Shown: in pieces, positions 16,410-61,314 of the stretch
Position numbering within the stretch: position 1 is the first letter of the stretch
Layout: each line of letters starts with the position of its first letter
Assembly (NCBI GenBank): GCA_030041545.1
Contig: JASHNQ010000050.1
Coordinates: 22,374-86,373 of the forward strand
DNA: 64,000 nt
Source of the DNA: a candidate division FCPU426 bacterium
GTDB lineage: Bacteria > Oederibacteriota > Muellerivitia > Muellerivitales > Muellerivitaceae
Reading direction: 5' to 3'
Notes under the pieces: generated by a model
The model's input: the letters and a program-made list of their open reading frames with translations, nothing else
Database searches by the model: none
Told to the model about the DNA's origin: nothing
Program-made: the position numbers and the translations under genes

Positions 16410-16446
16410 GTTTTCTCTCCTTGTTAAGAACCCTAACAAAAATACA

Positions 16447-16575
16447 AACGCTTACCACAAAGTTCACGAAGGACACAAAGTGAAGCATGGAAACGTCGGG
16501 AAAACCTAAGGTTTTTAACTTCGTGTCCTTTGTGCCGATTCACCTTGTGGTGAGCGTTTTTGGTTAGGGACTCTA
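16447..16575. repeat. compound palindromic element P1 (CACAAAGT-family arms within ctaacaaaaa-type outer inverted repeats)
   Basis: cttaccacaaagttcacgaaggacacaaagt ... aacttcgtgtcctttgtgccgattcaccttgtggtgagcg tttttggttagggactc; near-identical reverse-complement copy at 18876..19000. Confidence 0.7.
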
Positions 16576-18645: not shown

Positions 18646-18875
18646 CTTCGTCCTCCAGGAAAAATACGGGATTTGACCTAAAGCCGGTGGGTTCAACCGG
18701 CGCAAGGCGCTCGAGGCTTCAACCTGGATTTTGAATTGAATTGGGGGAAAGAGAAGCGGGGACAGCCGCTGGAAATGACGTCGACTGGGCATGATTCTAC
18801 CTTAAAAATTGGGAAACGCAAGGGCCAAAAGCCGGCGATGAAAGCGTTTTGATGGGCATTTAGAGTCCCTAACCA

Positions 18876-19000
18876 AAAATGCTCACCACAAGGTGAATCG
18901 GCGCAAAGGACACGAAGTTAAAAACCTTAGGTTTTCCCGACGTTTCCATGCTTCACTTTGTGTCCTTCGTGAACTTTGTGGTAAGAGTTTAGAGCGAAGG
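18876..19000. repeat. compound palindromic element P2 (reverse-complement copy of P1)
   Basis: gagtccctaaccaaaaatgctcaccacaaggtgaatcggcgcaaaggacacgaagtt...cactttgtgtccttcgtgaactttgtggtaagag, which is the reverse complement of 16447..16575 with a few substitutions. Confidence 0.7.
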
Positions 19001-20915: not shown

Positions 20916-20960
20916 AGTCAACCTCCTTCTTGCGCCTTACCCCGTCCTTTTTTGGAAAAC

Positions 20961-22823
20961 CTATGGGCCGCCCGCCTTTTTATGGAGCATTTGGCGCGTG
21001 GCTTCCAGGATGCGGGCCACCGGCTTTCGCCGGTAGTCCCACCGGGGATCGGGGCCGGGCGGGGTGACGTTCATGCAGGCATTGGCTTCGTAAAGCAGCA
21101 GGTTGCCTTCCCCGTCCAGGCCGAAATCAACGCCAGCGTAATCGAGGGCCAATTGGTCCCGGATAGCCTCCAGGGCCCGGAAGGCCCGTTCCCCGATGGC
21201 GGACCTCGTGTCGCCAAGGAATGCCTGGTCCTCAGCCCGGTTTTCAGGGTGGTCGTCCATGTCGGCGGTGAAATAATGCACCTTCCAATCCCCGGAGAGG
21301 GCCAAGTGGGCCGGGTAAAGTTCCCCGCCGATCATCATGACCCGGTATTTCCGCGTCTTCCCGTCCTTGCCCCGGCCGTCCAGGTAACGCAGGACGGTCA
21401 GCACTGATCCGGGAAGGGACGCCACCGCCAGGGCCAGGTCCTTTTCGTTGGAAACCAGGCGGAAATAACGGCCCAAGTGGTATCCCGGCGAGCGCAGGAG
21501 GAACGGATAGGAAAACCCCCTCCTGGCGACTTCGGTGTAACCGTCCGGTTTCGCCAGCAGCTCCTTGGGCAGGTTGACGATGTCGGGGGTGACGACGCCC
21601 TTAATCCCTCGCAGGCGCACCGCGTTTTCGGCGCGGCCCGTGGCCAGCACCCGGGAAGGCGGGTTGACGACGGGCGCCCTCGACCGGGCCAGGATGGTTT
21701 GGACGGCGCGCAGGGCGGGGCGGCAAAGGTCGGCCTCCCCGACGCAGTTGACCGCCAGGCGGTGCGGGGGAAGGGGCTGGGTGGGGTCGTAAAAATCGGT
21801 CACAATCACGGAGGGAAGGAAAGTCCCGTCGTCCATCATTTTGAGGAAGGGACCGTTGTTGTCGAACGTGGAGGTTAAGAGAAGCACCGGCAAAGGCCGG
21901 GGTTCGCCGCGCCGGGGCTTGGCCCCGGCCGCCGTGTCCCCGGGAGGCCCGCCTTCCGGAGGCGGCAGGAGGGACAGGGCCTGGCGGGCCTCTGGACAAT
22001 CGGCCTGAAGTTCCAGGACCTTCGCGTACTGGGCGCGAGCCGCCTCGGTCTTTCCTTTTTCCCGCAGCAGGCCGGCCAGGGTCAAATGTCCCTGGACGTT
22101 TCCGGGGTGGTGCCTCAGCGCCTCGGGGAGGGCCAACAGGAAAAACCCATCGGGATCGTCCGTCTTTCCCGGCAGGGAGGGCGAAAGTTCCAGGACCCGC
22201 CCATAGGCCAGCCGCGCTTCATCGTCCCGGCCCAGTTCCTTAAGCAGTCGCGCCCGGTAAAAATGGGCTTCCACGTCGTCGGGGGACGCCCTCAGCCGTG
22301 CGTCCGCCTCCTCGAGGGCCGCCAGCCGCGACACCCGCAGCATTTCCTTCGTCGCCTCCGATACGGCTTCAAACCGTTGCCGGGCGGCCGCCGGGTCCTC
22401 GGGCTTTAATTGCACGTTGGAAAGCCGGCGCAACCGCCCCAAAAGCACCTGCCGCCTGACCGCGAAGGCCAGCCTGCGCCCAAGGGAATCCGCGTCCCTG
22501 TCCATCTTGGTCAGGCAGTCCACGGCGCCATCCTGCAGGGCGCGGAAGGACAACTTGACATCCTTGTCCGTGAGGACGATGGAAGGCGCCCCTGGGGCCA
22601 AGGTTTGGACTTCCAGGAAAAAGGGGAGGCTGTCCTGCCCGGGCAGGTCCACGGCGATGAAGTCGGGGGCCCTTTCCCCGATGGCCCGCCGGACGTCCTC
22701 CAGGCCTTGAAGGTGGAGGAATTCCACATCCTCGTCCCTGATCCGGGAAAGGACCTCTTTCCAAAAATCGGCGTCGCGTCCGCTTTCCTGGAGGAAATAG
22801 CACCGAATGGGGCTTGCGTTCAT
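20961..22823 (-). CDS. receiver (REC) + TPR + ATP-grasp (RimK-like) fusion protein, paralogue 1
   Basis: N-terminal CheY-like domain with acceptor context PDFIAVDLPG; central TPR repeats; C-terminal ATP-grasp motifs YRVMMIGGELYPA...VDFGLDGEGNLLLYEANACM. Confidence 0.7.
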   Translation of the reverse strand: MNASPIRCYFLQESGRDADFWKEVLSRIRDEDVEFLHLQGLEDVRRAIGERAPDFIAVDLPGQDSLPFFLEVQTLAPGAPSIVLTDKDVKLSFRALQDGAVDCLTKMDRDADSLGRRLAFAVRRQVLLGRLRRLSNVQLKPEDPAAARQRFEAVSEATKEMLRVSRLAALEEADARLRASPDDVEAHFYRARLLKELGRDDEARLAYGRVLELSPSLPGKTDDPDGFFLLALPEALRHHPGNVQGHLTLAGLLREKGKTEAARAQYAKVLELQADCPEARQALSLLPPPEGGPPGDTAAGAKPRRGEPRPLPVLLLTSTFDNNGPFLKMMDDGTFLPSVIVTDFYDPTQPLPPHRLAVNCVGEADLCRPALRAVQTILARSRAPVVNPPSRVLATGRAENAVRLRGIKGVVTPDIVNLPKELLAKPDGYTEVARRGFSYPFLLRSPGYHLGRYFRLVSNEKDLALAVASLPGSVLTVLRYLDGRGKDGKTRKYRVMMIGGELYPAHLALSGDWKVHYFTADMDDHPENRAEDQAFLGDTRSAIGERAFRALEAIRDQLALDYAGVDFGLDGEGNLLLYEANACMNVTPPGPDPRWDYRRKPVARILEATRQMLHKKAGGP

Positions 22824-23049
22824 TTGGACCGCTCCGGTCCGCCGGCCAAAGGCGGTTTTCAGGTAACAATCATGTTTCGACGGGCGAGAATGGAAAAACC
22901 GCCCGGAAAAACGTCATTTTACCTTGGAGCGGGAAGAAAGGGATCGCGGGTTGGGCCGGTCTCAATAACTCTTTTAGGGAGATGTGGGACATCGGATTTG
23001 ATCGGCGGTTGAGTCTTTTTTGTTTACTTATTTTTAGGAGATAATCACC

Positions 23050-25137: not shown

Positions 25138-25178
25138 TGGGTTGGGAAAGTACAAGCCTTGAGGGGTGACTCCGCGAC

Positions 25179-27041
25179 CTATGGGCCGGCCGCCCTTTGA
25201 TGGAGCATTTGGCGCGTGGCTTCCAGGATTCGGGCCACCGGCTTTCGCCGGTAGTCCCACCGGGGGTCGGGCTCGGGAGGGGCGACCGTCATGCAGGCAT
25301 TGGCTTCGTAAAGCAGCAGGTTGCCTTCCCCGTCCAGGCCGAAATCAACGCCCGCGTAATCGAGGGCCAATTGGTCCCGGATAGCCTCCAGGGCCTGGAA
25401 GGCCCGCTCCCCGATGGCGGACCTCATGTCGCCAAGGAAAGCCTCGTCCTCGGCCCGGTTTTCAGGGTGGTCGTCCATGTCGGCGGTGAAATAATGCACC
25501 TTCCAATCCCCGGAGAGGGCCAAGTGGGCCGGGTAAAGCTCCCCGCCGATCATCATGACCCGGTATTTCCGCGTCTTCCCGTCCTTGCCCCGGCCGTCCA
25601 GGTAACGCAGGACGTTCAGCTCCTTTCCGGGAAAGGACGCCACCGCCAGGGCCAGGTCCCTTTCATTGGAAACCATGCGGAAATAACGGCCCAGGTGGTA
25701 GCCCGGTGAGCGCAGCAGGAAGGGATAGGAAAACCCCCTCTGGACGACTTCGGCGTAACCGTCCGGTTTCGCCAACAGGTCCTTGGGCAGGCTGACGATG
25801 TCGGCAGTGACGACGCCCTTAATCCCACGCAGGCGCACCGCGTTTTCGGCGCGGCTGGTGGCCAGCACCAAGGAGGGCGGGTTGACGACGGGCGCCTTGG
25901 ACCGGGCCAGGATGGCTTGGGCGGCGCGCAGGGAGGGGCCGCAAAGGTCCGCGTCCCCGACGCAGTTGACCGCCAGGCGGTGCGGGGGGAGAAGCTTGTC
26001 GGGGTCATAAAATTCGGTCACGATCGCCAAGGGGAGGAAGGTCCCGTCGCCCAGCATTTGGTACAAGGGACAATTGCCGTCGAGCGTGGTTAACAACAGC
26101 ACCGGCAAAGGCCGGGGTTCGCCGCGCCGGGGCTTGGCCCCGGCCGCCGTGTCCCCGGGAGGCCCGCCTTCCGGCGGCGGCAGGAGGGCCAGGGCCTGGC
26201 GGGCCCCTGGACAATCGGCCTGAAGTTCCAGGACCTTCGCGTACTGGGCGCGAGCCGCCTCGGTCTTTCCTTTTTCCCGCAGCAGGCCGGCCAGGGTCAA
26301 ATGTCCCTGGACGTTTCCGGGGTGGTGCCTCAGCGCCTCGGGGAGGGCCGACAGGAAAAACCCGCCGGGATCGCCTGTCGTTCCCAACCAGGAAGGCGCA
26401 AGTTCCAGGACCCGCCCATAGGCCAGCCGCGCCTCATCGTCCCGGCCCAGTTCCTTAAGCAGTCGCGCCCGGTAAAAATGGGCTTTCACGTCGTCGGGGG
26501 ACGCCGCCAGCCGCGATTCCCTCTCTTCGAGGGCCGCCAGCCGCGTCACCCGCATGGTTTCCTTCGCCGCCTCCAATACGGCCTCCCTCCATTGCCGGGC
26601 GGCCGCCGGGTCCGCCGGCCTCGCTTCTGGGGTGTAAAGCCGGTACAAACGCCTCAAAAGGACCTGCCGCCGGGCCCAAAGGGCCAGCCTACGCCCAAGC
26701 GAATCCACCTCCCCTTCCCCCATGACCAGGCAGTCCTCGGCGCCCTCCTGTCGGACGTGGAAGGACAACTTAGGATCGCCATTTTCCGTGACGGCGATGA
26801 AAGGCGACTCGGGGGCCAAGGTTTGGACTTCCAGGAAAAAGGGGAGGCTTTCCTGCCCGGACAGGTGCACGGCGATGACGTCGGGGGTCCTTTCCCCGAT
26901 GGCCCGCCGGGCATCCTCCAGGCCTTGGAGGTGGGGGAATTCCATGTCCTCGTCCCTGATCCGGGAAAGGACTTCTTTCCAAAATTCGGTGTTGCGTCCG
27001 CTTTCCTGGAGGAAATAGCACCGAATGGGGTTTGCGCGCAT
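25179..27041 (-). CDS. receiver (REC) + TPR + ATP-grasp fusion protein, paralogue 2 (acceptor Asp replaced by His)
   Basis: About 95% nucleotide identity to 20961..22823 over most of its length; N-terminal region diverged (PDVIAVHLSG instead of PDFIAVDLPG); start set at MRANPIRCYFL by homology to paralogue 1. Confidence 0.7.
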   Translation of the reverse strand: MRANPIRCYFLQESGRNTEFWKEVLSRIRDEDMEFPHLQGLEDARRAIGERTPDVIAVHLSGQESLPFFLEVQTLAPESPFIAVTENGDPKLSFHVRQEGAEDCLVMGEGEVDSLGRRLALWARRQVLLRRLYRLYTPEARPADPAAARQWREAVLEAAKETMRVTRLAALEERESRLAASPDDVKAHFYRARLLKELGRDDEARLAYGRVLELAPSWLGTTGDPGGFFLSALPEALRHHPGNVQGHLTLAGLLREKGKTEAARAQYAKVLELQADCPGARQALALLPPPEGGPPGDTAAGAKPRRGEPRPLPVLLLTTLDGNCPLYQMLGDGTFLPLAIVTEFYDPDKLLPPHRLAVNCVGDADLCGPSLRAAQAILARSKAPVVNPPSLVLATSRAENAVRLRGIKGVVTADIVSLPKDLLAKPDGYAEVVQRGFSYPFLLRSPGYHLGRYFRMVSNERDLALAVASFPGKELNVLRYLDGRGKDGKTRKYRVMMIGGELYPAHLALSGDWKVHYFTADMDDHPENRAEDEAFLGDMRSAIGERAFQALEAIRDQLALDYAGVDFGLDGEGNLLLYEANACMTVAPPEPDPRWDYRRKPVARILEATRQMLHQRAAGP

Positions 27042-27140
27042 TTTGAGCGTTCCGGTCCGCCGTTGAGGGTGGTTTTCAGGTAACATCCATGTTTCGGGAA
27101 ACCGCCCTGGAAAACCTTATTTTACTTTCCGGCAAGAGGA

Positions 27141-28439: not shown

Positions 28440-29310
28440 GGGCACTGGCGCATATGCGTTAGAATCCGGTGGCTTTTCCAACCCTTTAGGATTGGGCCTC
28501 AGTCCGGCTTTCTTGGCTATGTTTCCAGCGCCCCCTCATCAGTACGTGACCTTTTCGATCATACGGCTTTCCGACAACCTTTCCTCCGTCGGCTTTGCGG
28601 GTTCTGCTTTCTCTTGGCCGCTCGGCATAGTTCTTGTTGAAGATTACGCGCTTTTGTCCTTCAGAGTTGTTAGCCGTTTCCGGCATTCTCCAGCGCCACC
28701 CTTCTTGAATGCACGTGGTTGAAGCAGGGGACCTTCCCTCGGGAGAGGTTTTGTTGTCCTCCCCCTCTAAGCGGTACTATTTCCCCCTCCGACTTCCTCC
28801 CGTCACGCCTCCCTTTCGGTCGCCCTTATAGGAGCCGCTCTTTTAACGGGTAGGATCTCCCAGGTTGATGCATGAGCCTTTTCAGCGTTCCGCTCCCCAT
28901 ACGCCGGAGGATTTGCCTCACCCAATCCTGTTTCAGGGTGAGATTGTTGCCTTCGCCGGTGGACACGCGGCTCGGCCTCCCCTGTAGCCTTTCGGCGGAC
29001 TCTTCACGACGCGGCAGGATTCACTTCATGTTGCGGACTGCGGAGTTGTTCCCTTCCTTTCGAAGGTTTATGACCTCGTTTCGGACAAAGCCTCTCGACT
29101 TTGCCACGGAGGCTGACTTCGGGGCCCTCAGGCGGTTACCCCGTCAGGACTTGGTCCATATCGAACCTCACCTGCTGGCTACTGCACCCTTGTTCCTGGC
29201 ACACTGTCCACGACGGGTCCCAATCGTGGACACTCAAAATCAGCTGTACCTTTTTACAACTTCCTCCGTCTCTTTTGAGGCTCATTCCCATCAATAGCTA
29301 TTTTCCAAAT
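28440..29310 (-). other. ORF-free, lower-GC region; candidate structured RNA or degenerate group II intron fragment (unresolved)
   Basis: ~0.9 kb with only short low-complexity ORFs; plus strand pyrimidine-rich, so the minus transcript would be purine-rich; reverse complement of ~28548..28582 reads AAGCCGUAUGAUCGAAAAGGUCACGUACUGAUG, partly matching the group II domain V consensus GAGCCGUAUGCGAUGAAAGUCGCACGUACGGUUC. Confidence 0.3.
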
Positions 29311-31553: not shown

Positions 31554-31570
31554 TCACACTTCCAGACCGC

Positions 31571-31672
31571 CCTCACCACGAAGTACACGAAGACCACGAA
31601 GTAAAATCAATGTTGTTCAATACATTTTCGACCTACTTTGTGTACTTTGTGCCCTTTGTGGTAAGAGTTTTA
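31571..31672. repeat. compound palindromic element P3 (CACrAAG tandem-unit arms)
   Basis: cctcaccacgaagtacacgaagaccacgaagt ... actttgtgtactttgtgccctttgtggtaagag, in the lpxK-waaA intergenic gap. Confidence 0.7.
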
Positions 31673-33643: not shown

Positions 33644-33660
33644 GAAATCGTTCCCAAAAA

Positions 33661-33772
33661 CGAATTATGAATTATGAATTTTGAATTTTGAATTGCGGTT
33701 GGTTTCGCTTCCAAATTCGAATCGAAATTCTTCTTACTATAATTCAAAATTGAGAATTCAAAATTCAAAATT
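33661..33772. repeat. AT-rich compound palindrome Q1 (GAATTWTGAATT tandem-unit arms)
   Basis: gaattatgaattatgaattttgaattttgaatt ... aattcaaaattgagaattcaaaattcaaaatt, between the DUF374 gene start and the lpxB end. Confidence 0.65.
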
Positions 33773-34922
33773 AGCCTTTCAACAGCTTCAGGATTTCCCG
33801 GGCGACATTTTCAGAGGCTTTGGGCGGGCGGGCAATGCTCTTTTTGATTTTTTGGAAGGCCTTGGTTTGGCGGTCCCGGAAAGCCTTTTGGTCCAAAAGC
33901 CGGTGGGTTTCCTCGACGAGGCGCTTGGCCGTGGCCTTTTCCTGGAGAAGCTCGGTGACCACCGTCTGGCCCGCCAAGAGGTTGACCAAAGAGACGTTTT
34001 TTACCCTCAAAAGCCCCTTCACCAGCCAACCCGTGACGGCCGCCACCTTGTAAACCACCACCATGGGCGTTTTTAAAAGAGCCGTTTCCAGGGTGCTAGT
34101 GCCGGATTTAACCCAAGCCACATCGCAGGCCTTGCGTAGGTCGTAGGCCGGCCCCTCCACGAAAAAAAAAGGGTCGTCGGGGGTCAAGCCGTGAAAATCG
34201 TCCTGCTCCAACCCATGGGATTTGGGCACGATAAAGGCCGCGTCCGGGCAGGCCTTGCGCAGCAGCCGGGAGGCCTTTAAAAATAGCGGCCAAAGCCTTT
34301 CGATCTCGTCCTTGCGGCTTCCGGGCATGGCGCAAACCACGGGAAAGCGGGAATAGGAAATGCCCTTTTCCTCCAAAACAGCCTTTCGGTGGATGGGCCC
34401 AAGGTCTATCTCCTCCACCAACGGGTTTCCCACGTAAACCGCTTGGATGCCATGCTTGCGGAAATAAGCCGTCTCAAAAGGGAAAATGACAAGGAGCTTC
34501 CGCAGGATTTTTTTCATCACCTTGACCCGGCCCTCGTTCCAGGCCCAGACCTTGGGCGCGATGTAATAGCAAACGGGCACCTTGAGCCGGTAGGCGGCTT
34601 GCGCCAGCCGCAGGTTGAAACCGGGGTAATCCACTAGGAAAAGGAGGTCGGGTTTTTCGGCCTTCAGCCAGTTTTCGCAATCCCTGAGGCGCCTCAAACT
34701 GGCCGGAAGGTGCCGGAGGACCTCCGCGAAACCCATCACGGCCTTGGAGGTGAGGTCTTCCCGCGCTTCCATGCCCGCTTTCGCCATGCGGGGACCGCCA
34801 AAGCCGAAAATCCTTAATTTTTTATTCTTTCCAAGGAGCGCCCGAATGACCCTGGACGCGTGAAGGTCGCCGGAGGCTTCGCCGGCGACCATCAGGATGG
34901 ATCGGGGTTGGGGAGAGCGCAT
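33771..34922 (-). CDS. lpxB: lipid-A-disaccharide synthase
   Basis: ILMVAGEASGDLHASRVIRAL N-terminal motif and LpxB length. Confidence 0.85.
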   Translation of the reverse strand: MRSPQPRSILMVAGEASGDLHASRVIRALLGKNKKLRIFGFGGPRMAKAGMEAREDLTSKAVMGFAEVLRHLPASLRRLRDCENWLKAEKPDLLFLVDYPGFNLRLAQAAYRLKVPVCYYIAPKVWAWNEGRVKVMKKILRKLLVIFPFETAYFRKHGIQAVYVGNPLVEEIDLGPIHRKAVLEEKGISYSRFPVVCAMPGSRKDEIERLWPLFLKASRLLRKACPDAAFIVPKSHGLEQDDFHGLTPDDPFFFVEGPAYDLRKACDVAWVKSGTSTLETALLKTPMVVVYKVAAVTGWLVKGLLRVKNVSLVNLLAGQTVVTELLQEKATAKRLVEETHRLLDQKAFRDRQTKAFQKIKKSIARPPKASENVAREILKLLKG

Positions 34923-34956: not shown

Positions 34957-36156
34957 TCACGGGAGCGCGGCTTTCTTTTCTTCCAGGAGTTGCCGATACC
35001 ACTGGAGGTGCCGCTCCACCCAGGGTTCCAGGCTGAAACGCAGCGCTATTTTACGGGTTTCCCGCCGGAATTTCGCCATTAAAGCTTTAGACCCTAAAAC
35101 CTTCTCCAAAGCGTTCGCCCATTCCTGGGGATCGTCCGTGTCAAGCACCAAACCGCCTTGGGCCTTGCCGGGCTTTGACTCGAGTATCTCCGCCAATCCT
35201 CCGCCCCGGCGCGCGACCACCGGCCGGCCGCAGGCCATGGCTTCCACCACCGCCATGCCGAAGGATTCGGCCTCGGCCGCGTGCACCGCCAAATCCAACG
35301 CGGAAAGGAAACCGGCCACATCCTGAACGTAACCTTCATAGATGAACGCCTTTTCAATCCCCAGCTTCTTACGGAGGTCCAGGCACCGGTCGAAATACCA
35401 TTTTTCGTCGAGAGTATGTTTTCCGATGACCCTGAAGCGCACTTTCGGCCTTTGGGCGATCAGCTTGGCGGCGCAACGCAGCAAGAGTTCGTGGCCTTTG
35501 CCGGGTGTGACGCGGGAAACCATGCCGATCACCTCGTTCGGGCCCCAACCCCAGGCTTTCCGGAGCCTCTTGCGGGCGTCCGCCTTGAGCCGGAACTCCC
35601 GGAGGTCCACCGGCATGAAGGAGGTTTGGACCTTTTCCGGCTCAACAGGACAGGTTTCAACGACGTTTTGCCGGATGAATTCGGAACAGGTAAGCAAAAG
35701 GTCGACTCGTCCGTAAAGCCGCCGGTGGAGCAAGTCCTTTTTAGCGACGCCGGAAGCCACGTGTTTGGTGAGGAAGAGAGGCCCCTTCCAGCCCGCGAGG
35801 GCCAAGGCGGGAACCACCGACCACAAATCCTTCGTGTGGTGGAGGTGAATCACGTCCGGCGCCTCTTTCCGGAGGGCCTTCAGGATTTCCAGTGCGCTGG
35901 GAGGGCTGAAATGTCCGTGGAAGTGGAAAGCCTCGGTCAAAAGGCCCGCTTCCTGGGCTTTTTTCCCTAGGAACGAGCCGGGGTCGGCCCAAATGGAAAC
36001 TTCGTGTCCCTTTTTCCGCAAGGCCCGGGCCAGCAGGAGGGGGGCCAGTTCCCGGCCTCCCTCGCCCCGGGATGCGAGCGCTTGGACGATGCGGTAGCGG
36101 GAATGACGGTTCACGAAAACCCCTGGGCGCGGATTAAAAACATTTAACAAAACCAT
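34957..36156 (-). CDS. glycosyltransferase family 4 (GT-B fold)
   Basis: C-terminal GT4 motif ...ESFGMAVVEAMACGRPVVA. Confidence 0.75.
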   Translation of the reverse strand: MVLLNVFNPRPGVFVNRHSRYRIVQALASRGEGGRELAPLLLARALRKKGHEVSIWADPGSFLGKKAQEAGLLTEAFHFHGHFSPPSALEILKALRKEAPDVIHLHHTKDLWSVVPALALAGWKGPLFLTKHVASGVAKKDLLHRRLYGRVDLLLTCSEFIRQNVVETCPVEPEKVQTSFMPVDLREFRLKADARKRLRKAWGWGPNEVIGMVSRVTPGKGHELLLRCAAKLIAQRPKVRFRVIGKHTLDEKWYFDRCLDLRKKLGIEKAFIYEGYVQDVAGFLSALDLAVHAAEAESFGMAVVEAMACGRPVVARRGGGLAEILESKPGKAQGGLVLDTDDPQEWANALEKVLGSKALMAKFRRETRKIALRFSLEPWVERHLQWYRQLLEEKKAALP

Positions 36157-36159
36157 AAA

Positions 36160-36256
36160 CTCTTACCACAAAGTTCACAAAGGACACAAAGTAAAGACTC
36201 ATTCTTTGGAAAAATCATCGGTTTTACTTCGTGATCTTCGTGTACTTCGTGGTGAG
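36160..36256. repeat. compound palindromic element P4 (CACAAAG tandem-unit arms)
   Basis: ctcttaccacaaagttcacaaaggacacaaagt ... acttcgtgatcttcgtgtacttcgtggtgagaaa. Confidence 0.7.
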
Positions 36257-36273
36257 AAATTTTTTTAAGGCCT

Positions 36274-37389
36274 CTAATAAGGCGGGGGCACGGGGATGAT
36301 GGTGAACCGGAAATTGAAGTAACCCAACACCGCGTAGCCGCTGTCCCACCTCTCATAGCCCAAGTTGAAGGCGAAAAGCCCGTCAATCTGCGAATCCAAC
36401 ATGACCGGGTTATATTCCATGGGGAAGGGCTTCCAAATCTCGAATTTCATGTTGGTACCCAAAAGCCTTGTGTTGAAACCGGTGTAAAAAATGTTGGGCG
36501 GCGAGTTTTGGACGTTGGACAAAGTCGGGCTGGTGGTTGTCAGGGGGATCAGTTGGGAATAGGTCATGCTGGGCCCCAATCCCCAATCGTTGTTGGACGT
36601 GGCTTGGCCGAACCCGTAAATATAGCCGAAATGGACCGCCGAAGTCCGCGACACGCTCTTGCTCATGACCGTATAGACGCCGCCCATCGAACTGCCGGTC
36701 AACGTGAAAGTATTGCTGCCCGCCGACCCTGAGGAGCTGGGGGTGCCCCCGTTGAGGAGCATGGATAAGAGGAGTCCGGAGGCGAAAGCCGGCGTGTCCC
36801 CCTTCTCGTCCAGCCAGGCGTATTTCACGTCGCTGGTCAAGAGCCACAGCCTCAACGGATTCAGGTAGTTCGTCGGCTGGCCGATATCCTTTTCCGCGAT
36901 GGTCCCGATGAGGTAAGTGAAGGCGATGTCCCAATTGAAGCCGTCCCAACGCTGCCAGTCGTTGGAATAGGCCGTGGGCCAAAGGGCCAGGGACGCCCGT
37001 GAAATGCTGGGCGTGTCGGTCATGGTGGGGGTGTTCGTGGGGATGGTCCCCGTGACCGTGGGGGTGAAGGTGTAGGTGATGGTCGGCGTGGCGGTCGGGG
37101 ATCCCGGCGTGGGGGTGTCGGTGTAAAAGGAGGCAAAGGGATCCCAAGTCGGAGTCCATGTGGGGGTGGCGAAGGGGTTTTCGGTGAAGGTGGACGTGGG
37201 AGTCGCGGTGGGCGTGTCGGCAACCGTCGGGGTGTCAGTGTTGGGCGCGGCGGCGGTGAAGGTGGGCGTGGGAGTGCCCGTGGGGGGGAAGGTAGGCGTC
37301 GGGACCGCGGACTGCGCCCATAGCCAGCCGGCCGCGGAAAACGCCAAAAGCTCAACGCAAAATATAAACCTTAACTTTTTTGCGCCCAA
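36274..37389 (-). CDS. secreted Thr/Pro-rich repeat protein with conserved C-terminal domain
   Basis: TTG start; signal peptide; TPTxT repeats; aromatic-rich C-terminal region. Confidence 0.5.
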
Positions 37390-38288: not shown

Positions 38289-38867
38289 TCAACGACGGAT
38301 CAGGGAGGATTCCAAAAAATTCTTCAATAAGGCCTTTCCCGACTCGGTCAGGATGGATTCGGGGTGGAACTGGACCCCTTCCACCGGAAGCGTTTTGTGG
38401 CGCACCCCCATGATTTCCCCGTCCTCGCTGGTAGCGGTGACCTCCAGGCATTCCGGCAAGGTTTTTTTTTGGATGACCAGGGAATGGTACCGGGTCGCGC
38501 GGAAGGGATTGGGCAGGCCCTTGAACACGCCCTTTCCGTCATGGGTGATCTGGCTGGTCTTGCCGTGCATGAGCTTTTGGGCCCGAACGATGTCTCCCCC
38601 AAAGGCGTAACCGATGCTCTGGTGCCCCAAACAAACCCCCAGGATGGGGATTTTACCGGCTAGTTCCTTGATGGTTTCCACCGATATGCCGGCCTCTTTG
38701 GGCGAGCAAGGCCCCGGCGAGATGAGGATATGGGTCGGCTGGCGCTTTAAGATCTCCTCCACCGGGATCTCATCGTTGCGCGCGACTTGGATATCCGCGC
38801 CAAGTTCGCCCAGATATTGCACCAGGTTGTAGGTGAAGGAGTCGTAGTTATCGATCACGAGGATCAT
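38289..38867 (-). CDS. trpG: anthranilate synthase component II / glutamine amidotransferase
   Basis: [18 protein letters not shown]...GVCLGHQ class-I GATase motifs; overlaps trpE end by 4 nt. Confidence 0.8.
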
Positions 38868-40537
38868 TTGCGTCCTCCTTTCGCGGGAGAAACCCTTTTT
38901 CTTTTTTTGTTTTTCCCAAGCTTTGGCTTTCTTAGTGCCTTGGTGCCTTGGTGGTTGGAGGTTATCTTTTCCGCCTGTCCCACCGCCATCAACACCGCTC
39001 GGGCCTTATTGCAGGATTCCATATACTCGGCTTCCGGAACCGAGTCCGCTACCAGACCGGCCCCGGCCTGAACGTAGGCTATTTGCGTTGTTACCGAACC
39101 CGTCTTACGGGTTCGCCCCGAGCGAGCGGAGCGAGTCGAATGGGCCTTTTTGAGGACTACGGAGCGGATGGTGATGGCCGAGTCCATGTTTCCGTCGAAC
39201 CCGAAAGCCACTACCGCCCCACCGTAAATCCCCCGGCGGGAGGGCTCCAGTTCCTCGATGATCTCCATGGCGCGGATCTTAGGCGCCCCCGAAAGGGTGC
39301 CCGCTGGGAAGCAGGATTGGAACGCGTCATAGGCGGTTTTGTTTTTTTGCAGCCGCCCCGCCACGTCGGAGACGATGTGCATGACGTGGGAATAACGCTC
39401 GACGCGCTTGAAATGCCCCACCTTGACCGTGCCGAAATCGCAGACTCGTCCCAGGTCGTTGCGGGCCAGGTCCACCAGCATCACGTGTTCGGCCAGTTCC
39501 TTCTCGTCGGCTAGGAGGTTTTCCTCCAGTTGTTTATCTTCCTCCGGTGTCTTTCCCCGGGGCCTGCTCCCGGCGATAGGCCGGGTCTCCACCACGCCGT
39601 TCTGCACCTTGATCATCATCTCGGGCGAGGAGCCCACCAATTCCAAACCTCCCATCCTCAGGATGAACATGTAGGGGGATGGATTCAATCTCCTTAAAAC
39701 CCGGTAAATGGAAACCGCATCGGCTGAAACATCCCTTTCGAATCGCTGGGAGCCCACCACCTGGATGATGTCCCCCGCCTTGATGTATTCCTTGGATATA
39801 TCCACCATTCGCATGAAATTCTCGGGAGTCATGTTGGAGGAGAACCCAAAAAGGTCGTTAGGGCCCATCTTGACCGCGGAAGTCACGGGGATTTCCCTCA
39901 CTCCTTTTAATGGTTTTTCCATTTTTTGGGCCAAGGCGGCCAATCGCCGTATGGCGCCCAGGTAAGCCTTGAGCCGGTTGGTCCCAGGGCCGACTTCCAC
40001 ATTGACCACCAAGCGGAGCGTCCTTTTCAGGTGGTCGAAGAGGGCCAGTTGGTCGGTCACCATCAGGTAAAGGTCCGGGAGGTCCAGGATATCTGGTTTT
40101 TGGGACGGAAGTTTCTCGAAATACCGGACGGCGTCATAGCCGACGAAACCGACCAGCCCTCCCAGGAACCCTTGTGTCCCCGCCAGGGGGGCTTGCCGGA
40201 TGCCCGAGACCTCTTTTTGAATGACTTGCAACGGGTTGGCCGCCTTCTGGGACAACTTTTTCTTGCCCCGGCGGTGGGTAAGCATGCCGTTCTTGGCCTC
40301 ATAGACCGCGGTGGGCTCGAACCCCACAATGGAGAACCGGGCGACCTGCTCGTTCTTTTCCACGCTTTCCAGCAGGAACCCGTTCTCGCCTTGAGCCAGT
40401 TTCAAATAGACCGAAAGCGGGGTTTCCAAATCCGATTGGAAAACCATGGACACCGGAACGCGATTGTAAGATTCGGCGAGTTGGACGAAAGAATCGATGG
40501 AAGAAGGAACAATGTTTGAGGAAATTGCGGTTTTCAT
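38864..40537 (-). CDS. trpE: anthranilate synthase component I with unusual Lys-rich C-terminal extension
   Basis: Chorismate-binding domain conserved to ...[12 protein letters not shown]; an extra ~40 aa basic tail (..[22 protein letters not shown]) is encoded by palindrome-element-like DNA. Confidence 0.8.
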
Positions 40538-43146: not shown

Positions 43147-43282
43147 AATTTCCCTTTTTCGTCATCGCAGGGGGGGGCCGCAAAACCCGGCGCGGCGACC
43201 CAAAACAATCGAAAAACGGCCGCCGGTGGAATGATTTGGATGGCTTCGTCGGGCTAAAAGCCCCCTATGAAACAACCCCAGG

Positions 43283-43366
43283 CACCCCTCATCCCCCCCT
43301 CTCCCCCAAGGGGCGAGGGTGACGAGTACCCCTTCTCCCTTGAGGGGAGAAGGATGGGATGAGGGT
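43283..43366. repeat. GGGGAGAGGG-core palindromic repeat, copy B (modules X-Y)
   Basis: cacccctcatccccccctctcccccaaggggcgagggt gacgagta ccccttctcccttgaggggagaaggatgggatgagggtg. Confidence 0.7.
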
Positions 43367-45314: not shown

Positions 45315-45332
45315 CAAAAACCTCTTTTACCC

Positions 45333-45418
45333 CGAAGACACGAAGTACGCAAAGAACGACTAAAAGTTTTATTTTTAACCACTTTTTGCCTTTTTCGCGT
45401 GCTTCGCGCTTTCGCGGT
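45333..45418. repeat. compound palindromic element P8 (CGCGAAG/CACGAAG tandem-unit arms)
   Basis: cgaagacacgaagtacgcaaagaacg ... ttcgcgtgcttcgcgctttcgcgg, in the hisA-hisH gap. Confidence 0.6.
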
Positions 45419-46044
45419 TAATTTATTTCGACTAAGGTTTTGAAGTTTTCGTAAATCTTGAGCCCGACCGTTTGGCTCTTTTCGGGGTGGAACTGGGTGC
45501 CGAACACGTTCTTTTCCCAAACCATGCAGGTGAAATCCACTCCATAGGAGCATTGGGCGGCGACAATGGATGGGTTTTCCGGAACCACGTAATAAGAGTG
45601 AACGAAATAAAGGAAATCGCCGTCTTTAACCCCTTTTAGCAGGGGATTCCCGTTTTTCTTGACCTGGATTTGGTTCCAACCCATATGAGGTACTTTTTGG
45701 CCCTGGGCAAACTTTACGACCCTGCCTGGAAAGACGCCCAGGCCCTTCGATAAGCCGAATTCCTCGCTTTCGGCGAAAAGCATCTGCAGCCCCACGCAAA
45801 CCCCCAAGAAAGGCTTTCCCGAAGCGATATAAGACTTGATAGCCTTAGCCAGGTCTGACCGGTTCATGGCGTCCATGGAATCCTTGAAGGCCCCCACGCC
45901 GGGCAAAACCACGCCGTCGGATTTTTCCACGTCCCTCCAGTCGGACGTCACATGGGTCTTGGCCCCAACCTTTTCCAGGGCCTTGGCCACGCTGTGCAGG
46001 TTGCCCACGCCGTAATCCACGACAGTTATCATTAAAAACCCCAT
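45418..46044 (-). CDS. hisH: imidazole glycerol phosphate synthase glutamine amidotransferase subunit
   Basis: Canonical HisH (ITVVDYGVGNLHSVAKAL...GVCVGLQ). Confidence 0.9.
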   Translation of the reverse strand: MGFLMITVVDYGVGNLHSVAKALEKVGAKTHVTSDWRDVEKSDGVVLPGVGAFKDSMDAMNRSDLAKAIKSYIASGKPFLGVCVGLQMLFAESEEFGLSKGLGVFPGRVVKFAQGQKVPHMGWNQIQVKKNGNPLLKGVKDGDFLYFVHSYYVVPENPSIVAAQCSYGVDFTCMVWEKNVFGTQFHPEKSQTVGLKIYENFKTLVEIN

Positions 46045-46290
46045 CTCTTACCACAAAGTAGACGAAGTACACAAAGTAAAGAATGAAAAACCTTTATGTT
46101 TTACTTCGTGGACTTAGAGACTCTAACAAAACCCTGTTTTTAAGGAATATCTCCCTCTCCCTTGAGGGGAGAGGGATGGGGTGAGGGTGGCAACTGCAGG
46201 GTTTTCCACACCTCTCACCCTACCCTCTCCCGCAAGGGGCGAGGGTCTGCGGCGGTTTTGTTAGAGTCTCTTAGTGTACTTTGTGGTGAG
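46045..46290. repeat. compound palindromic element P5 interrupted by a nested MITE-like insertion
   Basis: Left arm tcttaccacaaagtagacgaagtacacaaagt...ttttacttcgtggactta, then the insertion, then right arm ttagtgtactttgtggtgagag. Confidence 0.65.
46117..46270. mobile_element. MITE-like element copy C (GAGACTCTAACAAAACC terminal inverted repeats, GGGGAGAGGG core, modules Y-X) with TTA target duplication
   Basis: gagactctaacaaaaccctgttttt...core...ggttttgttagagtctc flanked by tta/tta; near-identical to copy D at 61389..61542. Confidence 0.65.
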
Positions 46291-46302
46291 AGTTATTAAT
46301 TG

Positions 46303-48099: not shown

Positions 48100-48127
48100 A
48101 AACCATCCACAATTTAAAATTCAAAAT
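48100..48127. repeat. single-arm AT-rich GAATTTTGAATT-family unit array (Q2)
   Basis: ccacaatttaaaattcaaaattcacgattcaaaatt in the hisC-hisD gap; partner arm not evident. Confidence 0.4.
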
Positions 48128-49489
48128 TCACGATTCAAAATTATCTTTCTTACCCATCCTAAACAACACGCTTTGGGCGTGGGCGCCCAAACCCTCTTCG
48201 TTGGCAAAATCCACCGTGGCCTTGCCCAGCGCCTTCACGCCGGGTTTCTTGATCTCCAGCAGGTTGGTGCGTTTGAGGAAGTCGAACACCGAAAGCCCCG
48301 ATGAATAGCGGGCCGTGCCGCCCGTGGGCAGGACATGGTTGGTGCCCGCCGTGTAGTCGCCGAAGGCCTCGGCGCTGTGGGGGCCGATGAAGAGCGCGCC
48401 CGCGTGCTTGATGTCCGGCAGCCAGGCACGGGCGTCTTTGGCCAATATTTCGAGATGTTCGGGCGCGAAACGGTTGGCGAACTCGATGGCTTGCCTCCGG
48501 TTCTTCACCACGAGGATGGCCCCACGGCTCTTGATGGAATCGGCCGCGATTTGCTCCCGTTCCAGGAGTTCCAACTGCAATTCCACTTCCTTGGCCACTT
48601 CCTTGGCGTAAGGGGCGGAAGTGGTCGCCAAAAGGGGCATGGCCATTTCGTCGTGTTCCGCTTGGGCCAGAAGGTCCGCCGCCGCCCAGGAGGCCGGCAC
48701 TGTGCCGTCGGCCAGGATCAGCACCTCGCTGGGCCCCGGAAAACCGTCGATTCCAACTTGTCCGAAAACCTTGCGCTTGGCCAAGGCCACGAAGAGGTTG
48801 CCTGGTCCCGTAATCTTGTCCACGGCCGGGACTGACTTGGTACCATAAGCCAGGGCCGCGACGGCCTGGGCTCCACCGATCTTGAGAATGGTATCGGCTC
48901 CCGCGAAATAGGCAGCGGCCAGCACAATGGGGTTCACCTTGCCATCTTTCTTGACCGGCGTGACCACCACCACTTCCTTAACCCCCGCCACCTTGGCCGG
49001 AATGACATTCATGATGACCGAAGAAGGATAGGCGGCCAGGCCGCCCGGCACATAAAGTCCAACCCGGTCCAGGGGCGTCCAGCGCTGGCCTAGGGCCACC
49101 TGCGGGCCGTTGTGGAACCACCGGGATGGTTTTTCCTTGGCATGGAAAAAGCGGACGTTGCGGATGGCCGTGCGAATGGCGAATTCCACGGGAACTTCAA
49201 GATGATTGAGTGCCTGCTGGATTTCAGCTTGGGTGACGCGGATGTTTTTGGCGTTGGCGGCGAAGCCGTCCAGTTTACGGGTATAGCTGAAGAGGGCCGT
49301 GTCGCCTTTCTCCTTCACGTCTTCCACGATGCGCTCCACGGCCTGTTCAGGTGTCAGCTCCCGCCCGAAGACCTTCTTGGTCAAGGACGCCCGGCTGCCC
49401 GCGCCCTTTAAGGCGAAGATGGGTTCACGCTTAATAAGCTTTTCGACCAAAAAGCGGTCTTTATTCTTCGAATAGTTCAAGATTCGCAT
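48128..49489 (-). CDS. hisD: histidinol dehydrogenase
   Basis: Canonical HisD; ATG preceded by GAAGAGG. Confidence 0.9.
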   Translation of the reverse strand: MRILNYSKNKDRFLVEKLIKREPIFALKGAGSRASLTKKVFGRELTPEQAVERIVEDVKEKGDTALFSYTRKLDGFAANAKNIRVTQAEIQQALNHLEVPVEFAIRTAIRNVRFFHAKEKPSRWFHNGPQVALGQRWTPLDRVGLYVPGGLAAYPSSVIMNVIPAKVAGVKEVVVVTPVKKDGKVNPIVLAAAYFAGADTILKIGGAQAVAALAYGTKSVPAVDKITGPGNLFVALAKRKVFGQVGIDGFPGPSEVLILADGTVPASWAAADLLAQAEHDEMAMPLLATTSAPYAKEVAKEVELQLELLEREQIAADSIKSRGAILVVKNRRQAIEFANRFAPEHLEILAKDARAWLPDIKHAGALFIGPHSAEAFGDYTAGTNHVLPTGGTARYSSGLSVFDFLKRTNLLEIKKPGVKALGKATVDFANEEGLGAHAQSVLFRMGKKDNFES

Positions 49490-49500
49490 CACAACCTCTT

Positions 49501-49606
49501 CGCCAATTTTGAATTTTTAGTTTTAAATTTTAAATATTGGTGGTTTTCGATCAAAGATCGAAAACTTCCACAATTTAAAATTCAAAATTCATAATTCAAA
49601 ATTTCA
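49501..49606. repeat. AT-rich compound palindrome Q3 with perfect inner hairpin
   Basis: aattttgaatttttagttttaaattttaaatatt ... ggttttcgatcaaagatcgaaaac ... aatttaaaattcaaaattcataattcaaaattt, in the hisD-murA gap. Confidence 0.65.
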
Positions 49607-50863
49607 GTTTATCCTTTGAATATCCGCGCCCAAAACCAAAAGCTTCTGTTCGATTTTCTCATATCCCCGGTCCAAGTGGTAAATGCGCTGCACCAGGGTT
49701 TCCCCTTCCGCCACCAGTCCCGCCAGGATCAGGGCCGCGCTGGCCCGAAGGTCCGAGGCCATGACCGGCGCGCCGGTCAATTGTTTCACGCCTTTCACCA
49801 CCGCGTGGCTGCGGTCGATATTGATGTCCGCGCCCATGCGGTTCAGTTCGAAGACATGCATGAAGCGGTTCTCCCAGATGGTTTCGGTGATGACGCTGAT
49901 ACCCGGCACCACGGCCAAAAGCGCCATGATCTGGGCCTGCATGTCCGTGGGGAAACCGGGATAAGGAAGGATCCAGACATCCGCCGGTTTGTAGTCTCCC
50001 CCGCCCTTTACCCTTAGGCCCTCGGCGGTCCCTTCGACCGTTACTCCGATCTGCTTCAACTTGTCGGTAACCGCCGTTAAGTGGGTTGAATCGGCTTTCT
50101 TGAGCAGGACGTCGCCCCGGGTGATGGCGGCGGCCGCCATGAAGGTTCCCGCTTCCACCCGGTCGGGGATCATCGAATAATCGGTGCCCTTCAGGGTCTT
50201 TTTTCCGTCGATGACCAGGCGGGAGGTTCCCCCGCCCTCGATATGGGCTCCCATGGCCTTAAGGAAATTGACCAAATCCCCCACTTCGGGTTCGGTGGCG
50301 GCGGATTCGATGACCGTGGTTCCCTCGGCGGCCGTGGCGGCCATAAGCACGTTCACCGTAGCGCCCACGCTGGGGCCGTGCGGGCCGGCCAGGTAAATGG
50401 TGGTCCCCTTGAGTTTGGAAGCCTTGGCGTGGATGTAGCCGTGCTCGATGGTCACCTTGGCGCCCAACTGCTCCACGCCCTTCAGGTGAAGGTCAATGGG
50501 CCTTGCGCCGATGGCACAGCCCCCGGGCAGGGAAACCTTCGCTTCCCCCAGGCGGGCCAGGCAGGCGCCCAATGAGTAAATGGAGGCCCGCATGGTCTTG
50601 ACCAGCTCGTAAGGCGCCTCGAACTTATTGAACCCTTTGGGGTCGATATGCAGCCGGTGGTCTTCCAGGACGGCGGAAGCGCCCAGCTTGCGCAGCACCT
50701 CACCCATGGTCTTGATGTCGTTCAAGTAGGGCACGTTATGGATGACCGAGGGAGACTCGCCCAAAAGGGCGGCGGTCATGACGGGCAGGGTGGCGTTCTT
50801 GGAGCCGCTGATCTCAACCGTGCCCCGGAGGGTCTTACCGCCCTTGACGGAAATCTTTTGCAT
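49604..50863 (-). CDS. murA: UDP-N-acetylglucosamine 1-carboxyvinyltransferase
   Basis: Canonical MurA from MQKISVKGGKTLRGTVEISGSKNATLP onward. Confidence 0.9.
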   Translation of the reverse strand: MQKISVKGGKTLRGTVEISGSKNATLPVMTAALLGESPSVIHNVPYLNDIKTMGEVLRKLGASAVLEDHRLHIDPKGFNKFEAPYELVKTMRASIYSLGACLARLGEAKVSLPGGCAIGARPIDLHLKGVEQLGAKVTIEHGYIHAKASKLKGTTIYLAGPHGPSVGATVNVLMAATAAEGTTVIESAATEPEVGDLVNFLKAMGAHIEGGGTSRLVIDGKKTLKGTDYSMIPDRVEAGTFMAAAAITRGDVLLKKADSTHLTAVTDKLKQIGVTVEGTAEGLRVKGGGDYKPADVWILPYPGFPTDMQAQIMALLAVVPGISVITETIWENRFMHVFELNRMGADINIDRSHAVVKGVKQLTGAPVMASDLRASAALILAGLVAEGETLVQRIYHLDRGYEKIEQKLLVLGADIQRIN

Positions 50864-50885
50864 GAAAACCCCCAAAATCAAATGG

Positions 50886-51010
50886 AACCACAAAGGCACT
50901 AAGGGCACAAAGTAAATCCAAAACGATTTTGAGTTAAAACTAAAAAAGCCGTCCTAAGACGGCCTTTCAATGTTTAGAAAATTTTCGACTTTCTTGGTGC
51001 CCTTGGTGCC
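50886..51010. repeat. compound palindromic element P6 with perfect inner hairpin
   Basis: ggaaccacaaaggcactaagggcacaaagt ... gccgtcctaagacggc ... cttggtgcccttggtgcctttgtggttc, between the rnpB 3' end and the murA start. Confidence 0.65.
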
Positions 51011-51040
51011 TTTGTGGTTCAATGCCTTTGAAAATAAAAA

Positions 51041-51507
51041 AAGAAGCAGGTCATAAGCCGAATTCTGTTAAGTGTGATCATTTCTCTCGCGGGGTCCGTT
51101 GCCGGCCCCGTCGATGCGATCTTACCCGAAGGCCTCCCCTTCCCGTGAAGGAAAGGGATGGGACGGACCGCCCCAAAGCCTCCCTATTTGATCTTGCTCC
51201 GGATGGGGTTTGCCATGCCGCCCCACTTGCGTGGGGGCGCGGTGGGCTCTTACCCCACCTTTTCACCCTTACCCTTCGACTCGGCCTTACGGCCTCGCTC
51301 AGGGCGGGCCCCTTTAGGGAACCTGCTCTGGTCTCGCCAACGGGCGGTTTGTTTTCTGTGGCACTTTCCTTCAACCCAGTCCTCATCACCAAAGGTTAGA
51401 GGAAGGCTGGGCCGACCGGGCGTTACCCGGCATCCTGTCCTGCGGAGTTCGGACTTTCCTCACCCCCGGGCCCAAAAGGCCGGGAGCGCGATCACGGACC
51501 TGCTTCC
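51041..51507 (-). ncRNA. rnpB: RNase P RNA (bacterial type A)
   Basis: Minus-strand transcript: P1 GGAAGCAGGUCC pairs with GGACCUGCUUC; P4 5' strand GAGGAAAGUCCGAACUCC; GGGUAACGCC; P4 3' strand ACAGAAUUCGGCUUAUGACC; U-tract after the 3' end. Only spurious ORFs overlap. Confidence 0.85.
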
Positions 51508-51591
51508 AAGGGCATAATAGGGGTAAATCCGGCTGAAATCCAGCTTGGCAAACCCGCGGTAGTGGTTCAGTTTGAATGAACCAATCCAGCT

Positions 51592-51700
51592 TCACCCTCA
51601 CCCCGCCCTCTCCCCTCAAGGGAGAGGTGGAAATACACACAAAACCCTCGCCCCTTGAGGGAGCCCTTCGAGGGCCTCAGGGCAGGAGGGTAGGCTTGCG
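51592..51700. repeat. degenerate GGGGAGAGGG-family repeat, copy E
   Basis: caccctcaccccgccctctcccctcaagggagaggtgg ... ccctcgccccttgagggagccc. Confidence 0.5.
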
Positions 51701-52662: not shown

Positions 52663-52688
52663 GGCCTTAAACCCCTAAACAAAATCCC

Positions 52689-52795
52689 TCTTACCACAAA
52701 GTACACAACGGACACGAAGTTTAAACCTTTACTTTTTCCCAAATGTTCTACTTCTTTAAACTTTGTGTACTTCGTGAACTTGGTGGTGAGAGTTT
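52689..52795. repeat. compound palindromic element P7 (CACAAAG/CACGAAG arms)
   Basis: ctcttaccacaaagtacacaacggacacgaagttt ... aaactttgtgtacttcgtgaacttggtggtgagag. Confidence 0.7.
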
Positions 52796-52815
52796 AAAGG
52801 TGTTGTTACAGTCTT

Positions 52816-59576: not shown

Positions 59577-59587
59577 AAAACCCCTTA

Positions 59588-59697
59588 TCACCGCGAAGAC
59601 ACGAAAACCGCGAAGGAAGATTTAAAAAGGAAAAATGATGTTTTTCAAAACAAAATTTTTTTGCTTTTCTTCGCGAACTTCGCGCCTTCGCGGTTCA
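59588..59697. repeat. compound palindromic element P9 (CGCGAAG tandem-unit arms)
   Basis: caccgcgaagacacgaaaaccgcgaaggaag ... cttttcttcgcgaacttcgcgccttcgcggttca, in the kdsA-pyrG gap. Confidence 0.6.

Positions 59698-61314
<1,617 letters not shown>

Follow-up and report, generated by a model that had tools for sequence, protein, structure and literature searches.

How does a conserved biosynthetic enzyme come to end in a peptide that lies beyond every alignment with its solved homologues? This question is raised by a stretch of 64,000 nt (hereafter the window) from a candidate division FCPU426 bacterium (GenBank assembly GCA_030041545.1, contig JASHNQ010000050.1, positions 22,374 to 86,373). 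Here trpE, the gene for anthranilate synthase component I, runs on past the end of the conserved fold with a Lys-rich C-terminal tail before it overlaps the start of trpG. The answer favored here is that the tail is probably one half of an intergenic inverted-repeat element read in frame, carried along as a tolerated, disordered and basic passenger with no sign of a function of its own.

Regarding the host gene itself, its product is identified as TrpE by the domains Anth_synt_I_N and Chorismate_bind (Pfam, E=6e-87), by matches to solved TrpE structures (E=8e-113) and by the adjacent trpG. Homology ends between aa 511 and 526: the Pfam Chorismate_bind match stops at aa 511, and alignments with the solved TrpE structures 7bvd and 5cwa stop at aa 523-526 (..AVGQAEKIT). 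The conserved domain is not interrupted, and the reading frame stays open from there up to trpG, where the TGA of trpE (38864-38866) overlaps the ATG of trpG (38865-38867) to give ATGA at 38864-38867 (mRNA ..AAAGGAGGACGCAAATGATCCTC). An AGGAGG Shine-Dalgarno sequence for trpG is located at 38874-38879, within the final trpE codons (KGGRK). A promoter scan of the trpE-trpG junction gave no promoter-like site.

The tail comprises 10 Lys and 4 Arg and no acidic residue at all. In its DNA, CTTNGTG occurs three times at 8-nt spacing (38930-38952), a motif that is also found in the arms of inverted-repeat elements between the genes of the window. A hidden Markov model profile of these arms with 55 model positions was built from 12 strong arms, the trpE site being excluded. 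On the coding strand, positions 3-47 of the 55 in this profile match 38922-38964 (12 bits, E=0.009), from the outer flank through the heptads to the inner flank, with codons ~526-545 corresponding to one element arm. In a 603-kb profile search, the tail arm of the nearest relative (locus L081) was found with E=0.001. Moreover, in relative L101, an intergenic arm (AACCACCAAGGCACCAAGGCGCCAAG) shows no difference from the window's tail arm in its first 20 nt. No partner arm for the solo arm in trpE was found nearby.

A sequence-only reading of this DNA had proposed a Lys-rich tail of ~40 residues, encoded by one arm of an intergenic palindromic family and resembling a copy termed P6, in a trpE reading frame that overlaps the trpG start. 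The assignment to the family is borne out by the profile and by a full element in relative L167 (see below), and the overlap with trpG is as described. P6 turned out to be the right arm, at 50993-51020, of the copy at 50879-51022, and blastn aligns it with the tail over 19 nt at 95% identity (51001-51019, E=0.005). The tail is indeed rich in Lys, yet it measures 34 aa rather than ~40.

The family to which the tail DNA belongs is dispersed in the same genome. With the tail left out of the profile, nine elements are found in the 64-kb window, all of them inverted pairs, and clusters of at least two heptads number 12 compared to 0.05 expected in shuffled sequence. The elements are intergenic, AT-rich and ~95-145 bp long; the GC content of the paired copies is 0.36-0.47 versus 0.54-0.62 in their flanks, and three of the nine (neighboring gene ends checked) begin ~6-20 nt from a flanking stop or start codon. 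Their arms of ~30-45 nt are 81-95% complementary, and their interiors vary, with no conservation between copies. The closest complete copy (50879-51022) directly follows RNase P RNA (class A; 258 bits; 51039-51506, minus strand). Rfam gave no match on the elements; its sole matches were RNase P RNA and a piece of a group II intron. Further intergenic copies are present in relatives L090, L098, L101, L112, L165, L166 and L167. In L081, downstream of the same gene, the place of the intergenic element at window 36156-36262 is taken by an unlike and far longer sequence whose arms are degenerate (L081 4975-5340).

An arm consists of (A/T)ACC, three CACNAAG heptads at 8-9-nt spacing and an A-rich flank, and every paired copy has the order 5'-ACC(CACNAAG)x3, A-rich ... 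T-rich, (CTTNGTG)x3GGT-3'. In all pairs, whether in the window or in relatives, the CACNAAG arm precedes the CTTNGTG arm, and either strand shows this order, as the element equals its own reverse complement. The consensus CACCAAG repeat has no stop codon in any of the three frames. An open reading frame entering a copy from either side therefore reads CAC-CAA-GGC-ACC-AAG.. (His/Gln/Gly/Thr/Lys) and afterwards the A-rich flank (Lys/Arg); intergenic arms are followed by A-rich sequence of the same kind, such as AAGAAAGTCGAAAA and AAGAAAAGAAAACAAAA. Due to the fixed polarity, any gene reading into an element gets the CACNAAG arm first and the A-rich flank second, and hence the tail is basic and hydrophilic. 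Its last five codons (KGGRK) are not element-derived and carry the ribosome-binding site of trpG. In some copies, differences between the arms would allow G-U pairing on one strand only; the left arm at 31578, for example, is CACGAAG x3, opposite the complement of CACAAAG x3 in the right arm.

Heptads within one arm tend to be alike and differ between copies and lineages (uniform arms in the window: 5 of 12 versus 2.1 expected, P=0.05). Simple decay from one insertion cannot produce this likeness, which points to slippage, gene conversion, re-insertion or selection. Slippage also figures in an alternative origin of the tail, according to which a native 8-nt unit at the trpE end gave rise to the array in situ, through slippage or duplication, and the likeness to the family is coincidence or convergence. 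In line with this, untailed relatives read ..IATN(V/A)KGVR, the DNA of L165 (GCCACAAATGCTAAAGG) being loosely like a single unit, and the perfect triples CACCAAGG x3 in the L081 tail and CGCCAAGA x3 in that of L084 look slippage-made. Nonetheless, such an origin is very improbable: the profile match extends to both flanks, the non-repeated outer one and the A-rich inner one, the identical arm architecture is found at dozens of unrelated intergenic sites, and L167 has a matching right arm at the same site.

The distribution of the tail was followed in close relatives, of which a protein search yielded 92 (54-94% identical, 324-574 aa, full-length members 508-574 aa); tail lengths were compared in 88 of them. 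The relatives were arranged by UPGMA (unweighted pair group method with arithmetic mean) on core identity, so sister relations are approximate. A scan of a genome collection with a full-length TrpE alignment gave, among the matches listed, only relatives of 42-48% identity, which were of no use for the tail. The window's own TrpE, looked up as an exact sequence, had no database record. The nearest relative, P0001 (locus L081, assembly GCA_030052315.1), is 94% identical and has the same tail in the same frame with three amino-acid changes, one base differing between the two tail arms. Tails are at most 16 aa long in 37 of the 88 relatives and longer than 25 aa in 42, and outgroups at 58-63% identity have short tails. 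Tailed and untailed proteins also occur side by side as close sisters (P0012 versus P0019/P0021; P0005/P0008 versus P0018/P0023/P0025/P0026; P0041 versus P0042; P0037 versus P0046).

All the variation among the relatives falls in two places: one is a loop that precedes AYVQAGAG, the other lies between ..QAE and the conserved end (KGV)RKGGR[SKP] with its stop codon. This end, together with ATGA, is common to relatives with and without insertions. About 20 of the 88 relatives carry tails of the H type (CACNAAG arm, read H-x-G/D-T-K-x-x-R-K; 34-39 aa), ~12 proteins carry S-type tails (TTCGACTCGCTCCGCTCGCTCAGGG plus a hairpin, read STRSARSG), and a third motif of GTGAAAAG type (read KVKRFES) is found in three proteins. 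Since the outgroups are already short and overlapping, the short junction represents the ancestral state, and the long tails are due to insertions upstream. The sequence-only reading had regarded an intergenic element as absorbed into the coding sequence with the basic tail as the product. This holds for an insertion upstream of the conserved ATGA junction, whereas a version in which trpE lost its stop fits less well with the short, overlapping outgroups; and the element accounts for the basic tail but not for the whole extension, the last 5-9 residues being the ancestral end that relatives without insertion have as well. In trpE, the element piece lies between ..QAE(K) and the ancestral junction.

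Two outcomes that the same reading had named as fatal to it can be dismissed. One, a tail common to all orthologues, is contradicted by the short tails above. The other is a sequencing error or frameshift hiding a stop near ..GQAE; a chimeric join at a repeat would be an artefact of similar kind. Repeats can indeed cause chimeras, as in the 2-kb metagenome contig L085 (45-480), where a trpE tail with both arms runs in frame into citrate-synthase-like sequence, probably a chimera or a rearrangement at the repeat. For the window, though, an artefact is next to inconceivable: L081 comes from an independent assembly with the same open frame and tail, open tails that run up to the same ATGA junction are present in dozens of relatives, and the gene order hisI-trpE-trpG-G5/3D is conserved among relatives.

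Two relatives carry other states of the insertion. L167 (P0003, 85% identical in the core) has a complete two-armed element at the trpE-trpG junction. Its left arm lies within the trpE tail and is read QNEATKSQRK, the trpE stop falls in the element interior, and the right arm (cttccttcgtgtctttgtgtcttcgtg) is located in a 73-nt spacer before trpG. In the same region (L167 11540-11700), an ancestral-looking AGGAGGGGGAAATGA is found inside the element, with ATGA again at the true trpG start 73 nt on; ATGA on both sides of part of the element may represent a target duplication. In L084, by comparison, the CGCCAAGA x3 arm does not share the frame of the old junction, and the frameshifted tail stops 13 nt before trpG.

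From these states a history can be proposed. A copy of the element would have come to lie between the last TrpE helix (..AVGQAE) and the ancestral gene end RKGGR(S/K), with L167 as a possible earlier state. Later the right arm would have been lost, plausibly because a long hairpin and a T-rich arm coding for hydrophobic residues would break the coupling to trpG, and the left arm with its A-rich inner flank would have been kept, in frame and free of stops. Ribosomes would then read HQGTKALRK, the Lys/Arg run and finally the ATGA junction, giving a disordered, strongly basic tail of 34 aa. The frame may have been kept because the ATGA, by which trpG is coupled to trpE, is within reach of ribosomes only if the remnant is open and in frame.

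Whether the peptide itself does anything was approached through structure prediction and sequence divergence. In an AlphaFold2 model from a 39-sequence alignment (predicted template modelling score, pTM, 0.85), the last helix comprises residues 501-528, and the predicted local distance difference test (pLDDT) falls below 50 in only two TrpE segments, residues 467-481 and 531-557; as far as prediction goes, the extra peptide is thus surface-exposed and compatible with the fold. Compared to L081, the ratio of nonsynonymous to synonymous divergence (dN/dS) is ~1.2 in the tail (4 nonsynonymous changes, 1 synonymous) and 0.10 in the core. It could nevertheless be argued that the basic tail is a selected extension that binds a polyanion (RNA, DNA or polyphosphate) or tunes the TrpE-TrpG complex, with the element serving only as raw material. 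Tails of the H type persist at similar length in many lineages, nearly all long tails are basic (on average 35% Lys+Arg and 3% Asp+Glu), and a neighboring surface loop of the clade is Lys-rich, too (KKKGKKTT). Yet close sisters live without the tail, the tail sequences are hypervariable and stem from at least three unrelated DNA motifs, the region is predicted to be disordered and diverges at the dN/dS just given, and A-rich element DNA, once it is read, automatically yields a basic composition. A selected function of the peptide is therefore considered unlikely, and the tail appears to be a tolerated passenger rather than a functional domain.

A second alternative assigns the role to the nucleic acid, the peptide being a by-product. 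The solo arm would be a site in trpEG mRNA or DNA for an arm-recognizing factor, or a pairing partner of complementary arm transcripts, and would affect trpG coupling or mRNA stability. In its favor, synonymous divergence from L081 over trpE codons 464-557 (38867-39148) is well below that of the core and about one third of the value elsewhere in the gene (7.3 changes on 70.6 sites versus 96.7 on 335, P=1e-4, for this single pair); the tail arm is nearly unchanged between the window and L081, whereas a nearby intergenic copy is wholly replaced; and heptads are alike within an arm but differ between lineages. This divergence argument derives, however, from one sequence pair, the tail mRNA shows no significant local structure (z=-1.26), a partner arm is likewise missing, many relatives have no arm at the trpE-trpG junction, and no binding factor is known, which makes such a role decidedly unlikely. 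A wider version would have the heptad-array elements as an undescribed kind of repeat whose arms are kept uniform or selected, the trpE-trpG junction as a recurrent landing or retention site (three motifs, dozens of species), and the solo arm as a working cis-element, so that the low synonymous divergence reflects function; this, too, is rather doubtful. The behavior of the heptad arrays remains a small point outside the simple passenger reading, and function at the nucleotide level stays a minority hypothesis.

Several further observations weigh against a passenger derived from one arm of a mobile family. First, the tail arm is the weakest of 19 accepted profile matches (12 bits), all intergenic copies scoring more strongly (E 1e-13 to 1e-3), and its heptads are spaced 8/8 nt compared to 9/9 or 8/9 in the intergenic arms of the window; 8/8-spaced intergenic arms do exist in relatives L098 and L101. 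Second, eight copies were inspected at their ends without a consistent direct repeat that would mark a target-site duplication, and no parent insertion sequence sharing these ends was found in the 64-kb window, so the family is only putatively mobile. Third, synonymous divergence in the tail alone is low for the one pair compared (1 change on 23 sites, P=0.004 versus the core rate), which could indicate constraint at the nucleotide level. Fourth, H-type tails keep a near-constant length of 34-39 aa across lineages that are only ~75-80% identical, which suggests long retention and is not predicted for a purely neutral passenger. Finally, translation of the tail is a prediction from its open reading frame. 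The half-element passenger is still held to be the probable explanation, and the features on which it is based are compiled in Table 1.

Table 1 Features of the trpE-trpG locus and copies of the inverted-repeat family (positions in the window)
Feature	Position	Strand	Basis or remark
trpE (anthranilate synthase component I), 557 aa	38864..40537	-	Open reading frame; Pfam; solved-structure matches
trpG (glutamine amidotransferase), 192 aa	38289..38867	-	Pfam GATase E=1e-66, match from residue 3 (class-I)
C-terminal tail, aa 524-557 (34 aa)	38867..38968	-	Beyond all solved-structure alignments
Solo arm: outer flank AACCTCCAACC, heptads CACCAAG/CACCAAG/CACTAAG (38930-38952), AAAG	38922..38964	-	Profile, shuffles, blastn
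A-rich inner flank of element, read as Lys/Arg-rich codons	38882..38929	-	Same kind of A-rich sequence after intergenic arms
Ancestral trpE/trpG junction: codons KGGRK, AGGAGG, ATGA overlap	38864..38881	-	Sequence; ending common to relatives with and without insertions
Second in-frame insertion, aa 464-485, unrelated to the tail element; begins with S-type motif, contains TTCGACTCGCTCCGCTCGCTCGGGG	39083..39148	-	20-aa gap versus solved structures
Intergenic family copy	16446-16560	.	Inverted profile-match pair
Intergenic family copy	18877-18991	.	Inverted profile-match pair
Intergenic family copy	31569-31671	.	Inverted profile-match pair
Intergenic family copy	36156-36262	.	Inverted profile-match pair
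Intergenic family copy	45320-45421	.	Inverted profile-match pair
Intergenic family copy	46042-46294	.	Inverted profile-match pair
Intergenic family copy, closest complete one; encloses terminator-like hairpin 50943-50968 (-)	50879-51022	.	Profile pair
Intergenic family copy	52688-52796	.	Inverted profile-match pair
Intergenic family copy	59585-59701	.	Inverted profile-match pair

The second in-frame insertion of trpE is absent from solved TrpE structures and from L167, L084 and L165. It contains a 9-bp hairpin at 39095-39115, the pairing of which is kept by compensatory changes (TCGAACGC/GCGTTCGA, CCGAAGGC/GCCTTCGG, CGAACCCGT/ACGGGTTCG), and in the model its residues 467-481 form the first of the two segments with pLDDT below 50, predicted to lie between strands 457-464 and 485-495. 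In other relatives, the 25-nt motif of this insertion occupies the position of the tail, directly before the trpG Shine-Dalgarno sequence. Outside trpE, it was found neither in the window nor in the loci of close relatives and metagenomes (~603 kb; distant genome-collection loci were searched along with them), and it is therefore only a candidate dispersed repeat.

Beyond trpE, the window is rich in short repeats generally. The only long inverted repeat (16446-16576 with 18860-18990, 131 nt) was considered as the mark of a transposon and set aside, as the open reading frames it flanks (323 and 197 aa) were not recognized as transposases by eye, no protein-family search having been made. Another repeat family consists of hairpins of CCCTCTCCCTTGAGGGGAGAGGG and CCCTCTCCCCCAAGGGGCGAGGG type (9132-9257, 43282-43358, 46111-46282, 51558-51647 and 61383-61554), its 172-nt copy at 46111 being repeated at 61383 with 93% identity. 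An AT-rich palindromic family is made up of 7-nt units of AATTCAAAATTCAAAATT type (9892-9939, 33656-33786, 48100-48147 and 49505-49617). A duplication of ~1.9 kb (20959-22844 and 25177-27062; 4.2-kb spacing, 90-95% identical) has the look of tandem paralogous genes, and the group II intron piece corresponds to an Rfam D1-D4-4 segment (29026-29162, minus strand, 64 bits). Downstream of the G5/3D-domain gene, an open reading frame at 36274-37389 (minus strand) has a long Pro/Thr-rich N-terminal half with TPTPTF repeats; its position is conserved across the clade, and the versions of the relatives have no Pfam match.

If the proposed reading is correct, the trpE tail is a clean example of bacterial intergenic repeat DNA becoming protein sequence, in which the captured peptide is always hydrophilic and basic because the polarity of the element is fixed. 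For annotation this means that a Lys-rich C-terminal extension or an odd loop, when met in a protein from a metagenome-assembled genome of this lineage, should not be taken for a domain. The relatives, moreover, form a series of untailed genes, half elements, one full element and one frameshifted tail, which could be used for studying how repeat insertions are tamed. Knowledge of tryptophan synthesis as such is left unchanged.

Among known systems, one comparison is with coupled trpE-trpG pairs; coupling through overlap is a well-known feature of trp operons. As in other pairs coupled by ATGA, the trpE stop overlaps the trpG start and the Shine-Dalgarno sequence is located in the last trpE codons. 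The difference is that the junction here is a fixed anchor upstream of which variable repeat-derived DNA gathers. With regard to the repeats, repetitive extragenic palindromes (REPs) and bacterial interspersed mosaic elements (BIMEs) of E. coli and Pseudomonas usually serve in the protection of transcript 3' ends or in termination. The present family resembles them in being multi-copy inverted repeats just after stop codons, some of them associated with terminators, but its arms, 30-35 nt in length, consist of three spaced heptads around a long variable interior instead of GC-rich stem-loops of 20-40 bp. A REP is defined as a palindrome of 20-40 bp, one end of which carries a GTAG or CGTC tag (PMC3733652). 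Measured against that definition, assignment to strict REPs was rejected: the arms, on inspection, have no GTAG/CGTC tag and start with ..(A/T)ACC, and the elements are 95-145 bp long.

A further comparison is with the bacterial MITEs (miniature transposable elements with inverted repeats) such as Correia/NEMIS, ERIC, BOX and RUP, with which the family shares a length of 95-145 bp, terminal inverted repeats, AT-richness, a preference for intergenic sites and occasional translational fusions to host open reading frames (PMC10969869). The family has terminal inverted repeats and falls within the 50-500 bp that delimit MITEs. In contrast to them, it shows no recognized target-site duplications, no parent insertion sequence in the window and no conserved interior, and it is at best a candidate member. 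In-frame fusions of palindromic repeats with host open reading frames have been documented for Rickettsia palindromic elements (RPEs) and occasionally for ERIC, BOX and other MITEs (PMC10969869). By analogy, the trpE tail would be a further example of this known route from repeat DNA into protein, with in-frame RPEs as the closest kind. As with RPEs, a housekeeping enzyme has an extra peptide through in-frame reading of a short palindromic family from its own genome; orthologues lack the insert, which lies beyond the conserved fold and agrees with the structure (PMC10969869). The likeness is one of insertion mode and probably not of sequence. Unlike RPEs, the trpE case keeps only half an element, places it at the extreme C-terminus against the start of an overlapping downstream gene, and is found in an uncultured, free-living soil or peat lineage.

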